Assembly (NCBI GenBank): GCA_964406965.1
Contig: CAYOTT010000001.1
Location: forward strand, 65,699-129,698
Length of the DNA: 64,000 nt
Reading direction: 5' to 3'
Source: an uncultured Desulfurococcales archaeon
GTDB taxonomy: Archaea > Thermoproteota > Thermoprotei_A > EX4484-217-1
Shown here piece after piece: positions 1,875-38,992 of this stretch (its first letter is position 1; each line of letters starts with the position of its first letter). Under the pieces are notes generated by a model. That model worked only from the letters and a program-made list of their open reading frames with translations. It did not search any database and had not been told where the DNA came from. Both the position numbers and the translations under genes were made by a program.

Positions 1875-2651
1875 TTGCAGCTCATAGACTTTCTAATATA
1901 CTTTGGTATACCTTTACTAATAATCTTAATAATACTTTCAAAAAGCATTAAGATAGTTAAGGAGTATGAAAGAGCCGTTATATTCAGACTTGGTAGGCTC
2001 TTAGGTGCTAAAGGTCCCGGACTCTTCTTCATAATACCTTGGGTTGATAGTGTAAGAATAGTTGATCTAAGAGTTGTTTCAGTAGACGTTCCAGAGCAAA
2101 GAATAATAACAAAAGATAATGTAACCGTAGGAGTCGATGCTGTAGTTTACTATAAGGTTTTTGATCCCATAAAAGCTGTTGTTGCTGTAGAAAACTATTC
2201 ATATGCTGTTCTTCTCTTGGCACAGACAACTTTAAGAGATGTTTTAGGCCAAGTTGAACTAGACGATTTACTTACTAGAAGAGAAGAGTTGAACAAAAGG
2301 TTAACCAGCATATTAGATGTAGCAACAGATCCTTGGGGAATAAAGGTGACAGCGGTTACTATGAAGGAAGTTAAGCTACCGGAAACAATGCTTAGAGCTA
2401 TGGCGAAGCAAGCTGAAGCTGAGAGGTGGAGAAGAGCAAGAGTAATAGAGGCTGAAGGTGAGAGGCAAGCAGCAAAGATTATGGCTGAAGCTGCAGGTTT
2501 TTACGAGAAACATCCTGCAGCACTTAGGTTAAGAGAACTGCAGACAATGGTTGAAATAGCTAGAGAGAAGAACTTAGTAGTTATATCGGAAGCTGGTAGG
2601 GGAATAGGGGAAGTAGTAGGGTTAATTAAAGGCGTTAAGGAGGGGAAGTAG
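1875..2651 (+). CDS. SPFH/band-7 (stomatin/prohibitin-like) membrane protein.
   Basis: N-terminal TM segment; stomatin-like core (RAVIFRLGRL..., ITKDNVTV, DAVVYYKV); Ala/Glu-rich coiled-coil tail. Directly followed by an NfeD-like gene. Confidence 0.85.
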   Translation: MQLIDFLIYFGIPLLIILIILSKSIKIVKEYERAVIFRLGRLLGAKGPGLFFIIPWVDSVRIVDLRVVSVDVPEQRIITKDNVTVGVDAVVYYKVFDPIKAVVAVENYSYAVLLLAQTTLRDVLGQVELDDLLTRREELNKRLTSILDVATDPWGIKVTAVTMKEVKLPETMLRAMAKQAEAERWRRARVIEAEGERQAAKIMAEAAGFYEKHPAALRLRELQTMVEIAREKNLVVISEAGRGIGEVVGLIKGVKEGK

Positions 2652-4610: not shown

Positions 4611-5030
4611 TCAATCGTCTGCAGAGGGTTTTTGAGATAAAATTATGGGGCTTGACCTATCAGTGTAGTTTACGCTAAAGTTCTTAGGTTTCAATTGCGA
4701 AACTATATATCTAAATGCTTTCCAAGGATCTGTATGTGCACCACATGTATAAACATCTACTGTTGCAAATTTATACTTAGGCCAAGTATGAATTGCTATG
4801 TGGCTTTCAAGAACTAAGCCTATAACACTTACACCTCCCTTGCTTCCACCAAACTTCCACACCTTTAATTCGTAAAGTATGGCGTTTGCTAACTCAGCTG
4901 CTTTTTTAACTATTTCGCTTAATTTTTTCTCATCCGATATGACACTTACATTGCACTCGTAAAGATTCGCATATATGTGTTTACCTACTACTCTATCTTC
5001 CTCAGCAATTTGTTCAGCATATTTTTGCAT
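4611..5030 (-). CDS. speH: Pyruvoyl-dependent S-adenosylmethionine decarboxylase proenzyme family (SpeH-type), paralog 1.
   Basis: GKHIYANLYEC..., FGGSKGGVSV, and [24 protein letters not shown], which carries the E-S self-cleavage site. Confidence 0.8.
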   Translation of the reverse strand: MQKYAEQIAEEDRVVGKHIYANLYECNVSVISDEKKLSEIVKKAAELANAILYELKVWKFGGSKGGVSVIGLVLESHIAIHTWPKYKFATVDVYTCGAHTDPWKAFRYIVSQLKPKNFSVNYTDRSSPIILSQKPSADD

Positions 5031-13330: not shown

Positions 13331-14107
13331 ATGATTAGTCTTGAAAATATAGAATACGATAGAGAATTACGTGATCTTGGTTTCGAAGTTTTCTATTTGA
13401 GAAAAACTTTCTCAACAATGGATTATGCTAAAGAAGCACTGACTTACGGAGGTTATCTTAAGGCAGTTATTGTTACAGAAGAACAAATTAAAGGAAGAGG
13501 AAGAAAAGGAAGAAAATGGGTCTCACCCAAAGGGGGTCTTTGGGTAACTATTGTGACACCTGTACCTCAGAGTATGTTAGAATTAATAAGTATGATAGCT
13601 GGGTTATCCGTAGTTCTCACCATAAAGGAACTCTATGGATTAAACGTTAAACTTAAGTGGCCAAACGACATTGTGTATTTAGGCTTTAAACTAGGTGGTA
13701 TACTTATTGAAAACGAATTACATGGCAGTAAGGTAGTGAGCCTAATAGGTATAGGGTTAAACTGCAACAATAACTCATTAAGTATAGGGGTTCCAGGAGC
13801 AATATCTTTACGAGAAATTCTTGGGCGGAAAATCTCTCGTATAGCATTGCTTAAAGGTATTATTAAGAACTTAGTAGCATTACTTAACAATTACTTACCT
13901 CATGATATCATACAAATATATAAAAGTCATAGCTTTACATTAAACAGGAAGGTGAAAATATTTAATGGTGAAAAAACTATTGAAGGAATTGCTGTAGACA
14001 TTACCGCTAATGGAAAATTAGTAGTTAAAACCTACGAGAATAATTTCATTACCGTAGAATTTGGCGAAATTATAGAGCATGAGGGCCTTCATTATAAGCC
14101 CGGTTAA
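13331..14107 (+). CDS. birA: Biotin-[acetyl-CoA carboxylase] ligase, monofunctional (no HTH).
   Basis: GRGRKGRKW biotin-protein-ligase motif and KWPNDI; divergent from accC-accB. Confidence 0.85.
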
Positions 14108-14409
14108 AATCTAAAACGTGTTTTATGTGTTCTCTTAAGTTTAAAAACTTCCTCCCTGATGCCCCTAGCTAAATTATAGCATCCTTCACCTCGCTCTAAA
14201 ACTCCCTTTAAAATGAGGCTCTTTATTACTTTCAACGGATTTTTTATACCTAAAGCTCTAAGTTCTCTTTCAGCAAGTATTTCTCCTACTGAAATGTGTT
14301 TCACAAAATAGTAAGTAACAAGCTTTTCTTCATCAGTTAATTCTAAGTTATTTAAAGAACTTATTGTTGAAAGCACTCTAACGGCATCCTCTAGCTTAAG
14401 CATTAGCAT
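14104..14409 (-). CDS. Small putative winged-HTH regulator.
   Basis: 101 aa with a helix-rich HTH-like segment; overlaps the birA stop by 4 bp. Confidence 0.4.
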
Positions 14410-14518: not shown

Positions 14519-14680
14519 TTAGCTTAAGGCTTCAACACTATTATAATTCCGTATTAGTAACGCTATTCCTCTACGTATTGCTTCGCTTCTTGATGTAAAA
14601 ATTCCCTTCTCAACAAGGCGGTCTATTTCTTTAAGTAACTCTTTTGGCATTTTTACTGAAACAACAACAACCTTGCCCAT
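14519..14680 (-). CDS. Ribbon-helix-helix (CopG/NikR-like) small DNA-binding protein, 53 aa. Too short for the ORF track.
   Basis: Hand translation of the minus strand gives MGKVVVVSVKMPKELLKEIDRLVEKGIFTSRSEAIRRGIALLIRNYNSVEALS*. It is paralogous to the product of 39030..39278 (FKVRRELLDRLDELVKNGYFSSRSEAIRTAIIMLI). Confidence 0.55.
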   Translation of the reverse strand: MGKVVVVSVKMPKELLKEIDRLVEKGIFTSRSEAIRRGIALLIRNYNSVEALS

Positions 14681-14760: not shown

Positions 14761-15738
14761 TCAATAATACCATGTGTTAATGAATAAGTGTTCTGATAAG
14801 CTTCTTTCAATATTTCCCTTAAAAGCTTCACAAACCCTATAGAATGGGCATGGTATAGTTTCCTTCCAATTTAAACATCGTGGCAAGGGTTTTATGCAAC
14901 ATGTTCTACCGAGGTTCCAAAGTACATCATCAAGTATTAATGGTGAAATATTTGCTTTTTCTGAAAGAATTTTGTAAGCTTTCCTAACAGTTAATCTTAT
15001 GATAACGTCTTCTTCCCAAGAGAATTCTTTACCATAAGAAATTCTTTGAATAATGTCTTTGCTAAGTTTAACTATACCTAAACGAAAAGCTATCCGTACT
15101 AAGTGGTTATCTACAGGTACTTGCAAATTCTCTTTATCTATGGGAATAAATATTCCTCTTCTTTCAAGAAATTTTACAAGTAAGTAAGGTTTTTTCTCAA
15201 CAGGATCCTCATAGGCTCTAAAAACTTTAAGCCTATCTATGAATCCTCCTTCAATGTTTTTCAACATGTTCTTGCTTTCACGGATAAGGTTCATAACACT
15301 ACCATCGTATAGTTTAACCAGTTTCCTCCCTAAATCTCTAAGAAGCATTACTCTTACATTTAAATCCCATATTTTAGCGTCATTAGTATTAAGCCACTTT
15401 CTAACATCGTTAACACTTATTTTGACAAGATTTTTAGGGTCAAAGAAATCAGGGTTGTTAACATACATTATTTTACCTAACCTGTAAAGTAAGTCAGCGC
15501 CATGGTACAGTTTACCATGCAATATTGTTTCATAGGGTTTTCCTTTATAACTTGTTCTATGATCAATAGCTACCATAGTTATGAAGTATTGAGCTACTTT
15601 TTCAGGTAAGTCATTTTTACTTGGATAATACTCTGGATTAGTAAAAGTGTCTATGTTTGAACTAAGCCCCCTAATTATTTTGCTCTTAACTAAGTAATTT
15701 GCTACCTCTGAAATTTTATCGTAATCTACCATTATCAT
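14761..15738 (-). CDS. Hypothetical protein with weak EndoIII-like (HhH-GPD-like) similarity and a C-terminal Cys4 cluster.
   Basis: VPVDNHLVRIAFRLGIV resembles the EndoIII VDTHV.RV..RLG segment; C-terminal CC-x6-C-x9-C-x5-C. Overlaps the downstream dUTPase-like gene by 4 bp. Confidence 0.35.
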   Translation of the reverse strand: MIMVDYDKISEVANYLVKSKIIRGLSSNIDTFTNPEYYPSKNDLPEKVAQYFITMVAIDHRTSYKGKPYETILHGKLYHGADLLYRLGKIMYVNNPDFFDPKNLVKISVNDVRKWLNTNDAKIWDLNVRVMLLRDLGRKLVKLYDGSVMNLIRESKNMLKNIEGGFIDRLKVFRAYEDPVEKKPYLLVKFLERRGIFIPIDKENLQVPVDNHLVRIAFRLGIVKLSKDIIQRISYGKEFSWEEDVIIRLTVRKAYKILSEKANISPLILDDVLWNLGRTCCIKPLPRCLNWKETIPCPFYRVCEAFKGNIERSLSEHLFINTWYY

Positions 15739-16211
15739 ATATTTTCACCCTTGTACTTACCATTATATTTTTTCAAAGGCTTAGAAGCCATTTTTACAAA
15801 AATTAATTGTGCTATTCTCGCATTCTTTTCAATAACTACTTCATCGACGTGTACGATCATTAAAACCTCGCTTCTACCGTAGTACCCAGGATCCCATAGT
15901 GCGCATCTAACATCTACACCCATCCTTAAAAGTGTTGAACGTGGAAAACAGAGTGCAACAGCATCTTCTGGTACGTACACGATTTCATTAATTACCACTT
16001 TGTATGCTCCTTTTTTAAGTTTCCATACATCATTCTTTAAAGGAACCTCCTCATACTTAGGCATTCTTCTTTCTTCGAAACCTACATAACCTTCAGTCAC
16101 TATTTTGAACACATGCCTTACTGTTAAATCAATACCAGCTGGTTGTACTTGCATGTTTTCGTTAATAATATTTTGTAAGTAATTTTTAGCTATATGTCCA
16201 GGCAATACCAA
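15735..16211 (-). CDS. dUTP diphosphatase / dCTP deaminase family protein.
   Basis: dUTPase-fold motifs (AGIDLTV, RSTLLRMGVDV, DPGYYGRSE). Confidence 0.7.
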   Translation of the reverse strand: MVLPGHIAKNYLQNIINENMQVQPAGIDLTVRHVFKIVTEGYVGFEERRMPKYEEVPLKNDVWKLKKGAYKVVINEIVYVPEDAVALCFPRSTLLRMGVDVRCALWDPGYYGRSEVLMIVHVDEVVIEKNARIAQLIFVKMASKPLKKYNGKYKGENI

Positions 16212-16275
16212 CTTTCATCACTTAAGGATGCTTGTATTTAAGTTCCGAAAAATATTTTATCATTTCAAAAATTTT

Positions 16276-16314
16276 AAGGGGGTAAAGCTTAAATTTTATG
16301 ATGTTTACCCCCTT
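16276..16314. promoter_or_regulatory. 11-bp inverted repeat AAGGGGGTAAA / TTTACCCCCTT (spacer 17 nt) bracketing a TATA-like box immediately upstream of the 16337 gene.
   Basis: Left arm 16276..16286, right arm 16304..16314, spacer gcttaaattttatgatg. G5 tracts at 16278-82, 16320-24 and 16330-34. Confidence 0.4.
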
Positions 16315-16336
16315 TTAAAGGGGGTGTTAGGGGGCG

Positions 16337-16723
16337 ATGACTGGGCTGGTAACTTTAGAGTATCAAGAACAGCAACCGAAAGTTATAGGACGCCATGTTT
16401 ATGGTAACCTATATGGATGCGATGAAGAAGTTCTTATGAACGAGGAGCTCCTTAGGGAAATAGTTGTTAATGCTGTAAAAATAGGTAACATGACTCTTCT
16501 TGATGTGAAATCATGGAAAATAGGGTTAGGTGTAAGTGTTCTTGCAATAGTTCTTGAAAGCCACATAGCGGTTCATACCTGGCCTGAGCATAAATTTGCA
16601 ACAGTAGATGTATACTCATGTGGTTCACATACAGATCCTGAAAAAGCATTTGATTACATAGCTAAAATGTTGAAAGCTGAGAGAGTTATTAGGAATTATG
16701 CTGATAGATCATATCTGGAATAG
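16337..16723 (+). CDS. Pyruvoyl-dependent decarboxylase of the AdoMetDC family, paralog 2. Candidate arginine decarboxylase or second AdoMetDC.
   Basis: [11 protein letters not shown] and [24 protein letters not shown]; paralogous to 4611..5030. Confidence 0.8.
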
Positions 16724-16773: not shown

Positions 16774-17208
16774 TCATTCTTCGGCCAGAAGCTTCTCGAC
16801 TTTTGAAAGATATCGTGATGTCTTTACTGCTCTTTCGGAAACTTCAATAACATTACCCTTGTATATGACATAGTGCTTAACATTTATGTTAGGAATTATT
16901 TTCTTGCACTCCTCAACCATCATGTGTAGTTGAACACAATGAGGACTACCGTCAACTGTAAGTACACTTATTTCCTCAAGCTCGCAAGACTTAATCATCG
17001 TAATAAGTTTGAACCCTACCATGTTCATATGTTCCCATTCTAAACAAACAGCTAACGGAACTTTGTCTTCAACGTATTTCCTCAATATTTCAGGATGTTC
17101 GTCTTTAACGCATGTCCCATAAATGAGAAGTTTCTTTTTCTCCCTAATCAGCTTGGAACATGCGTTAGTATCTATAAGTCTTCTAAATTTAAAACCCTCA
17201 TACCCCAT
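16774..17208 (-). CDS. Hypothetical Cys-containing protein.
   Basis: 144-aa ORF with six Cys; no recognised family. Confidence 0.35.
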   Translation of the reverse strand: MGYEGFKFRRLIDTNACSKLIREKKKLLIYGTCVKDEHPEILRKYVEDKVPLAVCLEWEHMNMVGFKLITMIKSCELEEISVLTVDGSPHCVQLHMMVEECKKIIPNINVKHYVIYKGNVIEVSERAVKTSRYLSKVEKLLAEE

Positions 17209-19069: not shown

Positions 19070-19348
19070 ATGGTTCTTTGCGAAATTTGCGAAGAAAATG
19101 AAGCTACATTAACATGTAATCTTTGTGGTAGAAGAGTATGCAGAAAACATATTAATGTAAACCATGTTTGCTCAGTATGTGAAATAACTCTTTGCGAAAG
19201 ATGCCATAAGTACCATGCAATAGGCTATTGTAAAATATGCGGAAGAAGCCTCTGTGAAGACTGCCTTATACAGTTGTCTCCCGTAGAGTATATATGTATT
19301 GATTGCCGCAATAAACTCTCCTTAAGGAAACTAAAAGCTAGGTTTTAG
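19070..19348 (+). CDS. Cys-rich zinc-finger (B-box-like) protein.
   Basis: Eight or more CxxC pairs in 92 aa. Confidence 0.45.
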   Translation: MVLCEICEENEATLTCNLCGRRVCRKHINVNHVCSVCEITLCERCHKYHAIGYCKICGRSLCEDCLIQLSPVEYICIDCRNKLSLRKLKARF

Positions 19349-19613
19349 TTTCCCCTAATTCCTTAAGAAAATCTTTAAGAATTTTAACATTAATTTCATG
19401 TTTAGATCTCCTACGCTTGTCAACGAATATGCCAAGCTTTCTTGCTTTATCTATCGTTAAACCTGCTTCCTTAATCTCTAATATACTAAAACCCCTTCCA
19501 ATTCTCCACTTAGGCGGTAATTTCCCTTGGCTTATTAATCTAGGTGTTTTTACTAGAGCCTTAGGGGGTTTCTGATTCTTCAACTTCAACCCCCCTGATT
19601 TAGGTTTTTCCAT
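19338..19613 (-). CDS. rpl13e: Ribosomal protein L13e.
   Basis: GRGFSILEIKEAGL...ARKLGIFVDKRRR matches the archaeal L13e pattern. Confidence 0.7.
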   Translation of the reverse strand: MEKPKSGGLKLKNQKPPKALVKTPRLISQGKLPPKWRIGRGFSILEIKEAGLTIDKARKLGIFVDKRRRSKHEINVKILKDFLKELGETKT

Positions 19614-19642: not shown

Positions 19643-20122
19643 TTAAGGTACTTTGAGCCGGAAATCTTCTTTAACAACATTTAGAGCAATACTTGTGTTT
19701 GTGCTTAAAACATACGGTTTAGCCAGGAGGCTTTTTATGAAATCGTTGAGTTCTTTTATTGACTTAAACTTTGCAACAACAATTACGTCAAACTCTCCTG
19801 TAACATCATATACTGCACATACGTTAGGATATTTTGCGACATCTCTTTCAACATTAATTATATGCTTGCCATCAACTTTTATTAAGACAAGAGCGGTTAC
19901 ATCATACCCTACTCTTCCGTAATCAATTTGCACAGTAAAGCCCTTAATTATTCCCTTAGTTTGCAGCTTCCTTACTCTTAAGTGTACTGTGCCAACAGAA
20001 ACCCCAAGTCTTCTAGCTAATTCCCTATATGTTATTCTAGGATTCTCTATAAGCTCATTAAGTATTTTCTTATCTAGCTCATCAAGCACTTTTGTAGACG
20101 TCATTTTCTTCACGAGCATCAC
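19643..20122 (-). CDS. Lrp/AsnC-family transcriptional regulator.
   Basis: N-terminal HTH (LDKKILNELIENPRITYRELARRLGVSVGTVHLRVRKL) plus a C-terminal RAM domain. Confidence 0.85.
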   Translation of the reverse strand: MMLVKKMTSTKVLDELDKKILNELIENPRITYRELARRLGVSVGTVHLRVRKLQTKGIIKGFTVQIDYGRVGYDVTALVLIKVDGKHIINVERDVAKYPNVCAVYDVTGEFDVIVVAKFKSIKELNDFIKSLLAKPYVLSTNTSIALNVVKEDFRLKVP

Positions 20123-35016: not shown

Positions 35017-35046
35017 CCTCTACATTGAAAAGGAGAAGAAGAGTAT

Positions 35047-35132
35047 ACGGGGGGCCATGACGCCTAGGGGTGGAGTCTCCCGTGTTCACCCCTACCCGCG
35101 ACACGGGTTGAGGTTACACGGGCCGTGGATTC
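35047..35132. ncRNA. GC-rich (about 65% GC) ~86-nt structured element in an AT-rich intergenic region. Candidate stable ncRNA or structured leader of unknown class.
   Basis: Sharp compositional island. 8-bp stem AGGGGTGG/TCACCCCT; CCCGTG...CACGGG pairing; direct repeat ACACGGG x2. No tRNA cloverleaf, 5S or C/D motifs could be fitted. Confidence 0.4.
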
Positions 35133-35152
35133 CATTATTATTTACTAAAGTA

Positions 35153-38677: not shown

Positions 38678-38992
38678 CTAAGTTGATGAGGCTATGTACT
38701 TTATTAAAGCAAAAATGCTTGTTCCTACAGCTAGCCAGAATGCACCTAAAATAGCATCTTCAACTATGTCCTGTCCAAACCTTTTTACTCTATATATTGG
38801 AATAGGTGAGCCCTTTAGAAGCCACCCAATGGCCCATGAAAGCATGAAGAGAGCCCATGCTGCAATAACTACTCTGTTAGTTAAATCATTGATTAGCGCT
38901 TCTATATCCACAACTATCCCCCCTAAGAATATATTGCTTTTTAAAAGGCTTTTTTGGGCTTTTAAAAAGCAATTATTTAAGATGATTCTCAA
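38678..38992 (-). CDS. Small membrane protein.
   Basis: 104 aa, two or three hydrophobic helices. Confidence 0.4.
   Translation of the reverse strand: MRIILNNCFLKAQKSLLKSNIFLGGIVVDIEALINDLTNRVVIAAWALFMLSWAIGWLLKGSPIPIYRVKRFGQDIVEDAILGAFWLAVGTSIFALIKYIASST

Follow-up and report, generated by a model that had tools for sequence, protein, structure and literature searches.

Several archaeal repressors, among them MDR1, LrpA, Phr, NrpR and members of the TrmB family, have operators that overlap the B recognition element (BRE) and TATA box of a promoter or its transcription start site. In eukaryotes, S-adenosylmethionine decarboxylase (AdoMetDC) is under post-transcriptional feedback through upstream open reading frame (ORF) control. 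To our knowledge, no regulator or cis element has been identified that controls polyamine synthesis in archaea, hyperthermophiles included, and the searchable literature, which is incomplete, describes neither for archaeal AdoMetDC. Here, we analysed an inverted repeat upstream of an AdoMetDC gene (16337–16723) in a 64,000-nt stretch of DNA from an uncultured Desulfurococcales archaeon (contig CAYOTT010000001.1; the whole stretch is hereafter the window). The repeat brackets the TATA box of the gene and belongs to a set of G/C tracts, in fixed places about the TATA box and start site, that recurs in distant heat-loving archaea and is probably an undescribed control site for polyamine synthesis.

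The element resembles the archaeal repressor operators in its dyad symmetry, in a location at which a bound protein would keep TBP/TFB or RNA polymerase from being recruited, and in being gene-specific and conserved together with its gene. It differs from them in two respects: its homopolymer G:C tracts (G5WWA) are not known to match any of these operators, and its arms stand on either side of the TATA box with centres ~30 bp apart, a spacing that varies by lineage. The likeness to eukaryotic AdoMetDC feedback is that the same enzyme is the controlled step and that the cis element stands just upstream of the coding sequence. However, the eukaryotic control acts on RNA, as when the 5' untranslated region (5'UTR) of Schizosaccharomyces pombe spe2 interacts with spermidine (PMC6961545), whereas the conserved parts of the archaeal element lie mostly upstream of the predicted transcription start.

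The repeat consists of two perfect inverted arms of 11 nt, AAGGGGGTAAA (16276–16286) and its exact reverse complement TTTACCCCCTT (16304–16314), separated by a 17-nt spacer, GCTTAAATTTTATGATG (16287–16303), that holds the hexamer TTAAAT (16289–16294) of the TATA box TTAAATTT (16289–16296, plus strand). The left arm (box 1, plus strand) carries a G5 run (16278–16282) followed by TAAA, and the right arm (box 2) reads AAGGGGGTAAA on the minus strand, its C5 run being at 16308–16312. Two more G5 runs follow on the plus strand. Box 3, GGGGGTG (16320–16326), would open the predicted leader and holds a G5 run (16320–16324) that overlaps a Shine-Dalgarno-like GGTG, and box 4 (16330–16334) is a G5 run 3–7 nt before the ATG. 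All four runs lie at most 60 nt from this ATG at 16337. The coordinates of the arms, spacer, TATA-like box and runs given in the initial annotation of this DNA were all verified. A second palindrome, missed at that first reading, is formed by ACCCCCTTT-T-AAAGGGGGT (16307–16325, arms at 16307–16315 and 16317–16325). It is centred on the predicted transcription start (~16316–16320) and makes the C5 run able to pair with either flanking G5 run.

We estimated what chance would produce from first-order Markov simulations of the 64-kb window. Perfect inverted repeats of at least 11 nt with a spacer of 3–30 nt are expected 0.92 times per 64 kb and occurred at least once in 61% of the simulations; the window holds two further repeats of this class. 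The length of the repeat is therefore unremarkable by itself. Four G5/C5 runs inside 60 nt were found in 0/150 simulations, and the whole window contains only 33 such runs. The expectation for the repeat drops to 0.067 per window when the arms need at least five G/C, and its 11 nt were reached by 0/500 composition-preserving shuffles of the flanks. Composition and clustering, not arm length, set the inverted repeat apart, and chance, like anything else not set out below, receives what probability the other explanations leave. The tract centres (16280, 16310, 16322 and 16332) are spaced by 30, 12 and 10 bp, roughly on one helical face; in one relative (L004; related loci carry L numbers throughout) they are at 12.5, 22, 31.5 and 42. 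We give this phasing limited weight because it is not seen in every lineage. Arms of 11 bp with a 17-nt loop are poor candidates for cruciforms.

The same AdoMetDC protein is found at 92–97% identity in close relatives (L001–L003 and L081–L085). Over five genomes (the window, L001, L002, L003 and L084), positions 16247–16339 are almost invariant, with flanking proteins that are merely 48–68% identical; in L001 and L003 these are a dUTPase (67–68%), a Q-salvage-like protein (62–65%) and an FAD oxidoreductase (48–49%). To the left of 16247 the DNA varies freely among close relatives, even within the dUTPase coding region. The conserved stretch starts with an upstream block, GAAAAATATTTTATCATTTCAAAAATTTTAA (16247–16275, plus strand), near-invariant in the same five genomes. 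Within this block, the palindromic, AT-rich sequence AAAATATTTT may serve the divergent dUTPase gene as its TATA box, the AdoMetDC promoter as an upstream element, or both. Differences among the close relatives are few. G5 has become G6 in L002, and TTTACCCCC has become TCCCCCCC in L003 and L083, where the TAAA/TTTA part of the repeat is lost and the runs are kept. The AT spacer between C5 and G5 reads TTTTAAA, TTAAAAA or TTTAAA, with invariant runs on either side. The conservation of the AdoMetDC protein in L001 and L003 (93–97%, against 48–68% for its neighbours) points to unusually strong purifying selection; alternatively, the gene was possibly exchanged recently together with its promoter. 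The overlapping ORF 16228–16407 (59 aa), which spans the element, was rejected as an upstream ORF, its frame being broken by 1-nt indels in L001, L002 and L084. Phase variation through tract slippage was judged unlikely, as the runs are short and vary by 1–2 nt between strains (G5/G6, C5/C7).

To follow the element further, we aligned on the TATA hexamer 35 non-redundant promoters of this AdoMetDC gene type, obtained from genome and metagenome scans and from look-ups in cultured species. The layout spans genomes of 34–69% GC in the Pyrodictiaceae, Ignicoccus, Acidilobaceae and Sulfolobaceae, and its cultured carriers include Pyrodictium occultum, Pyrolobus fumarii, Ignicoccus, Sulfuracidifex and Metallosphaera. 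In ~20 lineages, a G-run of 4–7 ends 6 nt ahead of the TATA hexamer (G-run, TAA, NNN, TTAAA). This register is shared by P. occultum, Pyrolobus fumarii, the Acidilobaceae, 'Calypsonella', several Desulfurococcales bins and some Sulfolobales bins; in Ignicoccus the G-run stands 7–8 nt ahead of the hexamer. Twelve lineages, a Sulfolobus sp. among them, have a C-run 13–24 nt past the TATA centre; in relatives of Pyrodictium it is double. Even where the genome is GC-rich, the tracts consist of pure homopolymer runs, and a promoter has 3–5 G5WWA boxes in mixed orientation, which looks like the turnover of binding sites. Further downstream, the leaders are G-rich. AT-rich lineages have one to three leader G-runs at ~+27 to +45, and the leader sequence GGGGG(G)TGTTAGGGGGCGATG is identical in L004, L005 and L007, a clade with ~70% protein identity. 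In the Sulfolobaceae loci L165, L166, L168 and L169, the AdoMetDC coding sequence itself starts with ATGATGGGGG, which places an extra G5 directly after the start codon(s).

The initial annotation had named the presence of the palindrome in orthologous promoters as the comparison to make, and a repeat bracketing the TATA box does recur there. Its arms differ in sequence from promoter to promoter, and relatives of Pyrodictium have longer versions of it; L092, for example, reads GGGGGGAGGGGGGTAACCC-TTAAAG-CTAAACATA-GGGTACCCCCCCTCCCCCC. The perfect arms measure 13 nt in L091 and in L092 and 11 nt in P. occultum (L162), lengths that, as for the 11 nt of the window, were each reached by 0/500 shuffles. 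The repeat is weak in L013, L016 and L003. The half-sites of G-run and C-run are conserved across clades, the TAAA/TTTA extension not always (as in L003). The element is also specific to the gene. Over ~770 kb (window plus loci), a relaxed G-run-TAA-TATA pattern matches almost solely promoters of the AdoMetDC type. The mean number of G5/C5 runs per 102 nt is 1.94 in the non-redundant AdoMetDC-type promoters, 0.25 in those of a paralogue type and ~0.05 in the window background. A generic promoter feature is thereby rejected, since GGGGGT, GGGGTAA or GGGTAAA followed by a TATA box occurs at no other promoter of the window. In this view, the core promoter and leader contain a set of G:C tracts that is specific to the gene and deeply conserved, and the inverted repeat is what shows most of it.

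This set could also be read as a symmetric bidirectional promoter, in which a BRE-like GGGGGTAAA on either side of one TATA box would drive the divergent gene as well. The arms are identical in the window and almost all lineages have a divergent gene upstream of AdoMetDC. We nevertheless regard this as very improbable. The downstream arm is 5–9 bp too far from the TATA box for a BRE, and in P. occultum it stands 15 nt from the TATA hexamer, compared with 6 nt for the upstream arm. The dUTPase gene has nearer TATA-like boxes of its own (16237–16244 and 16248–16262), and the divergent partner differs among lineages (MTA-phosphorylase-like, where MTA is methylthioadenosine; aIF5A; DUF211), while the element remains with the AdoMetDC gene.

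The identification of TTAAAT as the TATA box, made at first reading, was supported. Most orthologues have TTAAA or TTTAAA at −38 to −49 from the ATG, including those in genomes of 65–69% GC, where TAACCCTTAAAG is the sole AT-rich patch upstream of the gene. This marks TTAAA as the TATA box and would place the upstream G-run in untranscribed DNA. In the window, TATA-like hexamers upstream of 51 long ORFs have two peaks, one for leaderless genes (−26 to −28) and one for leadered genes (−42 to −46), and the centre of TTAAAT, at −45, falls on the leadered peak. With a usual TATA box-to-start distance of 26–28 nt (PMC8553660), the transcription start is predicted at ~16316–16320, in TTTTAAAG, from the TATA centre plus ~26 nt. 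The predicted start gives a leader of 17–21 nt that begins at the G5 run containing GGTG.

These positions bear on the proposal, made at first reading, that the repeat could be transcribed as an 11-bp hairpin that sequesters the translation start. The sequence does not support this. The left arm lies upstream of the BRE and TATA box and so should stay untranscribed from this promoter, and the hairpin would end 22 nt before the ATG, which makes sequestration of the start codon impossible in any case. Only the pairing of C5 with the G5 run at 16320 could mask the Shine-Dalgarno site, and this requires a start ~10 nt upstream of the predicted one. A switch in RNA might be built from both pairings, which are mutually exclusive: with transcription starting upstream of the C-run or of 16276, a G5UAAA:UUUACCCCC fold would free the Shine-Dalgarno site and a ACCCCCUUU:AAAGGGGGU fold would hide it, so that translation would respond to temperature or polyamines. 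If transcribed, the hairpin 16276–16314 has a folding energy of −16.8 kcal/mol at 37°C and −3.1 at 90°C, and the C5:G5 pairing 16306–16326 one of −13.0 and −1.7, so both would still be marginally stable at high temperature. Close relatives keep the stems invariant while the loop varies in length and sequence, and in S. pombe the AdoMetDC mRNA has a 5'UTR that responds to spermidine (PMC6961545). Such a switch is nonetheless improbable. Only one TATA box is credible, unambiguously so in the 65–69% GC orthologues, and the left arm precedes it; the predicted start at 16316–16320 leaves the C5 run untranscribed, and the short leader that remains is unstructured in folding predictions. The replacement of the C-run by a G-run in L164, L168 and L169 destroys the pairing, the downstream arm is missing in L008 and L019, and the pairing kept within the close clade comes without informative covariation. 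Around the element, Rfam gave only matches with E > 0.6. A known RNA family was likewise rejected over the whole window, with no Rfam match at gathering score and no tRNA found by ARAGORN.

The G-runs of the leader raise another possibility, that of a G-quadruplex or other non-B structure, either as an RNA quadruplex of two tetrads that covers the Shine-Dalgarno site and AUG or as a two-strand quadruplex across the TATA box. Several G5–7 runs with short loops stand just ahead of the ATG (such as G5-tgtta-G5, G5-a-G5, G6-c-G6-t-G6), many lineages have double G-runs ahead of the start codon, and in relatives of Pyrodictium double G-runs on opposite strands flank the TATA box. We give this little credence, as little as the bidirectional promoter. 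The runs at 16278, 16320, 16330 and 16343 would need a 37-nt loop between the first and the second, and there is no canonical motif of four runs (at least 3 Gs each) on one strand; the window permits two-tetrad arrangements only, which should be weak at 80–100°C. Moreover, G-quadruplex-aware folding of the leader predicts none, and the RNA of the Pyrodictium relatives has C-runs, not G-runs.

In archaeal promoters, the BRE is purine-rich, follows an RNWAAW-like consensus and lies directly upstream of the TATA box. GGTAAA (16281–16286), which directly precedes GCTTAAAT, fits both this position and this pattern, and GGTAA(N) stands in the equivalent place in most orthologues. Could the architecture then be constitutive, with an extended BRE, perhaps the preference of one TFB paralogue, strong or tandem Shine-Dalgarno sites and an incidental repeat? 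The fit of GGTAAA, the GGTG within GGGGGTG and the presence in some lineages of only an upstream G-run plus a G-rich leader are all in keeping with this, as is a protein far more conserved than its neighbours (93–97% versus 48–68%). Yet it leaves unexplained the C-runs between TATA box and start in 12 lineages and the perfect inverted repeats of 11–13 nt, and such a BRE is found at no other promoter in the 64 kb. We hold this explanation to be unlikely, slightly less so than the RNA switch.

In bacteria, stringent or supercoiling-sensitive promoters have a GC-rich discriminator that makes opening rate-limiting and sensitive to conditions. The archaeal element is similar in placing a G:C-rich segment between an upstream promoter element and the start site. 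The analogy is limited, because initiation here depends on TBP/TFB/TFE rather than sigma-70 and the segment, a homopolymer run, has a partner tract on the far side of the BRE. In Saccharolobus, promoter DNA melts from −12 to +3 (PMC8448881), which would put the C5 run (~−12 to −5 from the predicted start) inside the region that melts first; in Sulfolobus, the sequence of the melted region sets promoter strength and TFE dependence (PMC4495717). The tracts may tune the promoter without any protein: a G:C tract in the melted region and a tract abutting the BRE would make open-complex formation unusually costly, and output would follow temperature, supercoiling, TFE level and duplex-stabilising polyamines, a built-in feedback.

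Several observations agree with such tuning. Most lineages have a C- or G-run 13–24 nt past the TATA centre, ~−12 to −2 from the predicted start, in the very region (−12 to +3) that governs strength and TFE dependence in Sulfolobus (PMC8448881, PMC4495717). The strand of the tract can flip, as expected of a property of the duplex. No regulator of the element was found among the neighbouring ORFs scanned, and the gene product commits S-adenosylmethionine (SAM) to polyamine synthesis. On the other hand, duplex stability needs neither pure homopolymers nor an upstream G-run in fixed register nor the long inverted repeats of the Pyrodictium relatives, and the whole 90-nt block, AT-rich parts included, is invariant among close relatives, which exceeds what a melting barrier needs. 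The link to polyamines in this account is itself putative. The intrinsic model thus covers where the tract lies and why its strand does not matter, but not the purity of the homopolymers, the tract upstream or the long repeats. We consider it a minority possibility, if still a sizeable one. A little less probable is that the tracts form a protein-free DNA sensor, in which A-philic, hard-to-melt tracts would clamp the BRE and TATA box on both sides and occupy the region due to open, duplex-stabilising polyamines would throttle initiation directly and rising temperature would relieve it. A more exotic variant, for the relatives of Pyrodictium, would have their paired double G-runs, one pair on each strand, form a structure across the TATA box.

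We tentatively prefer a further explanation, with a confidence that stays a little short of even: the tracts would be operator boxes (~G5-W-W-A, in either orientation) for a DNA-binding regulator. What favours an operator cluster is the combination of homopolymer purity, fixed register to the TATA box, repeated G5WWA boxes, recurring dyad symmetry and near-total conservation over 90 nt. In addition, the downstream C-run is replaced by a G-run in Pyrolobus (relative to Pyrodictium) and in Sulfuracidifex and Metallosphaera (relative to the Sulfolobus sp.; L164, L168 and L169), which argues for recognition of duplex DNA rather than RNA pairing. The tract at 16278–16282 abuts the BRE, that at 16308–16312 would lie between TATA box and start, in the region that needs to melt, and those at 16320–16324 and 16330–16334 would fall within the first 15–20 transcribed bases. 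A candidate regulator would thus grip both sides of the BRE and TATA box and cover the start site; once bound, it would repress the gene by keeping TBP/TFB and RNA polymerase off the promoter. Such repression would be expected to serve feedback control of the supply of decarboxylated SAM and polyamines. The sequences, their statistical oddity, their conservation, their fixed register to the TATA box and their restriction to promoters of this gene family are shown by the analysis. Binding by a protein is inferred, as are the sign of the regulation, its effector and the start of transcription.

Proteins that read G/C tracts by shape do exist. The operators of the CsoR/RcnR family are of type 1, TACT-G6-N-AGTA, or type 2, TAC-X9-GTA with two G/C tracts 2–4 nt apart (PMC3902906). 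The stretches TTTA-A-GGGGG-TAAA (16273–16286) and TAC-CCCC...GGGG-GTG (16306–16326) resemble these in outline only. The fit of 16273–16286 to type 1 (PMC3902906) involves AT-rich flanks of a kind common in a 35% GC genome, and the window departs from type 2 with C5-N7-G5 (TAC-X15-GTG), a tract spacer of 7 nt instead of 2–4 nt. Some orthologues come nearer to type 2, with C5-aaga-G6 in L004 and CCCCCGGGGG in L013. CsoR/RcnR regulators are bacterial sensors of metals, persulfide or formaldehyde; their domain (DUF156/PF02583) was absent among the few neighbouring ORFs scanned, no search aimed at PF02583 having been made.

Several points weigh against an operator cluster. An ordinary BRE accounts for GGTAAA in the left arm, and a Shine-Dalgarno-like role may be all there is to the G-runs close to the ATG. 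The gap from arm to arm is not constant, ranging from 22 to 28 nt among lineages, and several lineages (L008, L019, L022 and Ignicoccus) keep the upstream G-run alone. No regulator is conserved beside the gene among the neighbouring ORFs scanned in the window and its relatives, and the 64-kb window has no second motif-bearing promoter, hence no visible regulon. Lastly, the orthologous promoters of Ignisphaera are without the G/C-tract motif. The Ignisphaera loci (L028–L034, L106, L108–L113, L116, L117 and L120) have other conserved upstream sequence, ~100 nt from the AdoMetDC orthologue, that reads GGTTTA[AT]ATAGGGTTT..., then TTATAAATA; control of AdoMetDC may have been rewired in this genus. 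Of the two mechanisms suggested in the initial annotation, the dimeric-regulator site is retained in part. A DNA-level operator over the promoter is the best current reading, while a simple dimer on half-sites of fixed spacing is doubtful because the gap varies over 22–28 nt and the downstream tract is a G-run in some lineages. We class the element as a real, conserved and gene-specific promoter element, of a kind best described as a putative promoter-embedded operator.

No candidate for the cognate regulator emerged from the surroundings of the gene. The initial annotation had pointed to neighbouring Lrp-type regulators, and the Lrp/AsnC gene at 19643–20122 has no demonstrated link to the element. 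A ribbon-helix-helix (CopG-type) protein of 53 aa, a small regulator that stands alone, is encoded at 14519–14680 (minus strand), adjoining PBP2 (14104–14409) and upstream of the Q-salvage-like and dUTPase genes. Both the ribbon-helix-helix and the Lrp/AsnC proteins were rejected as cognate regulators, as nothing ties either to the element; the ORF 14104–14409 was rejected as well, being PBP2.

The gene downstream of the element (16337–16723, plus strand) encodes a class 1b, pyruvoyl-dependent AdoMetDC-family proenzyme of 128 aa with a LESH processing site, the self-processing Glu-Ser motif of the family. The product matches PF02675 (AdoMet_dc; E = 3e-36) and TIGR03330 (126 bits, against a cutoff of 75.65), and its AdoMetDC matches in the PDB are 1vr7, 1tlu and 2iii. 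Its first description as a pyruvoyl-dependent decarboxylase agrees with these matches, and the names of its homologues favour the true AdoMetDC type. A paralogue, 52% identical, lies at 4611–5030 on the minus strand. P. occultum carries both gene types. In UniRef, its orthologue of the 16337 gene (P0013) is named SAM decarboxylase, and homologues of the paralogue are named arginine decarboxylase proenzyme. A C-terminal [KR]P[KR] motif is present in 102/120 paralogue-type proteins versus 11/120 of the 16337 type, and the C-terminus of Sulfolobus acidocaldarius argD, decoded from a published knockout primer, has the paralogue-type motif. On this annotation-level evidence, we treat the 16337 gene as a genuine AdoMetDC and not as the arginine decarboxylase type. 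The initial annotation had also suggested looking for the palindrome upstream of other polyamine genes. Within the window it does not recur there: the promoter of the paralogue has an ordinary TATA box and leader, with no G/C tracts. The neighbours of the paralogue are not polyamine genes.

The source genome of the window is Desulfurococcales-like, with ~35% GC. The divergent neighbour of the AdoMetDC gene is a dUTPase (15735–16211, minus strand; NF002598, E = 1.7e-52), which is probably outside the element and is given here to delimit the intergenic region. In the Pyrodictiaceae (and Pyrodictiaceae-like lineages) and Ignicoccus, the divergent gene is instead an MTA-phosphorylase-like phosphorylase of the PNP_UDP_1 family (L162, 489–1290; L011, 854–1639; L014, 1998–2783; L008, 2026–2856; L167, 1–516). 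It is likely an MTA phosphorylase, and aminopropyl transfer would then have its by-product recycled by this enzyme. In L022, a Sulfolobales bin, the upstream gene (2010–2411, minus strand), ~600 nt away, is aIF5A. Both kinds of neighbour are tied to polyamine metabolism, which is consistent with the gene being AdoMetDC. On its other side, the gene converges with orf144 (16774–17208, minus strand), which encodes a cysteine-containing protein of 144 aa that matches no Pfam or NCBIfam family. This is the best-conserved neighbour, with 78–94% identity in L001–L003 and 68–73% in L004, L005 and L007, where the dUTPase has 56–68%.

We also noted other structures in the window. The longest perfect inverted repeat, ATTGCTTTTTAAAAG / CTTTTAAAAAGCAAT (38933–38973), has 15-nt arms and an 11-nt spacer. 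The ORFs of this stretch are all short and overlap one another, and it is probably intergenic. A perfect 11-nt inverted repeat, GGAAACTAAAA / TTTTAGTTTCC (19326–19353), is found at the junction of two convergent genes, 19070–19348 (plus strand, a B-box zinc-finger-like protein) and 19338–19613 (minus strand), and may be a shared 3'-end hairpin. Within the latter ORF, a second G5-N21-C6 arrangement, GGGGGTTTCTGATTCTTCAACTTCAACCCCCC (19564–19595), is probably coincidental; its runs encode Gly-Gly and Pro-Pro. In AT-rich hyperthermophiles, GC-rich intergenic islands often mark structured RNA genes. One such island of 135 nt (35017–35152; 55–57% GC in a 35% GC genome) begins with GGGGGGCCATGACGCC and lies between two minus-strand genes. 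Neither Rfam (gathering score, E ≤ 1) nor ARAGORN found anything in it, and its fold z-score is merely −1.75.

AdoMetDC catalyses the committed step on the way to the aminopropyl donor, and the element follows its gene across Desulfurococcales-like lineages, the Pyrodictiaceae, Ignicoccus and the Sulfolobaceae, over a two-fold range of GC content. It thus offers a concrete handle on the control of this step: it could be used as bait for a regulator and tested in Sulfolobus in vitro transcription under varied polyamines, temperature and TFE. It would also be a clear natural case of homopolymer G:C tracts that hold fixed places about the TATA box and within the melted region of an archaeal promoter, and so would be relevant to the tuning of promoter opening in archaea. 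If the tracts were to act as a protein-free sensor, this would establish, in hyperthermophiles, a direct tie between growth temperature and the supply of long-chain polyamines.

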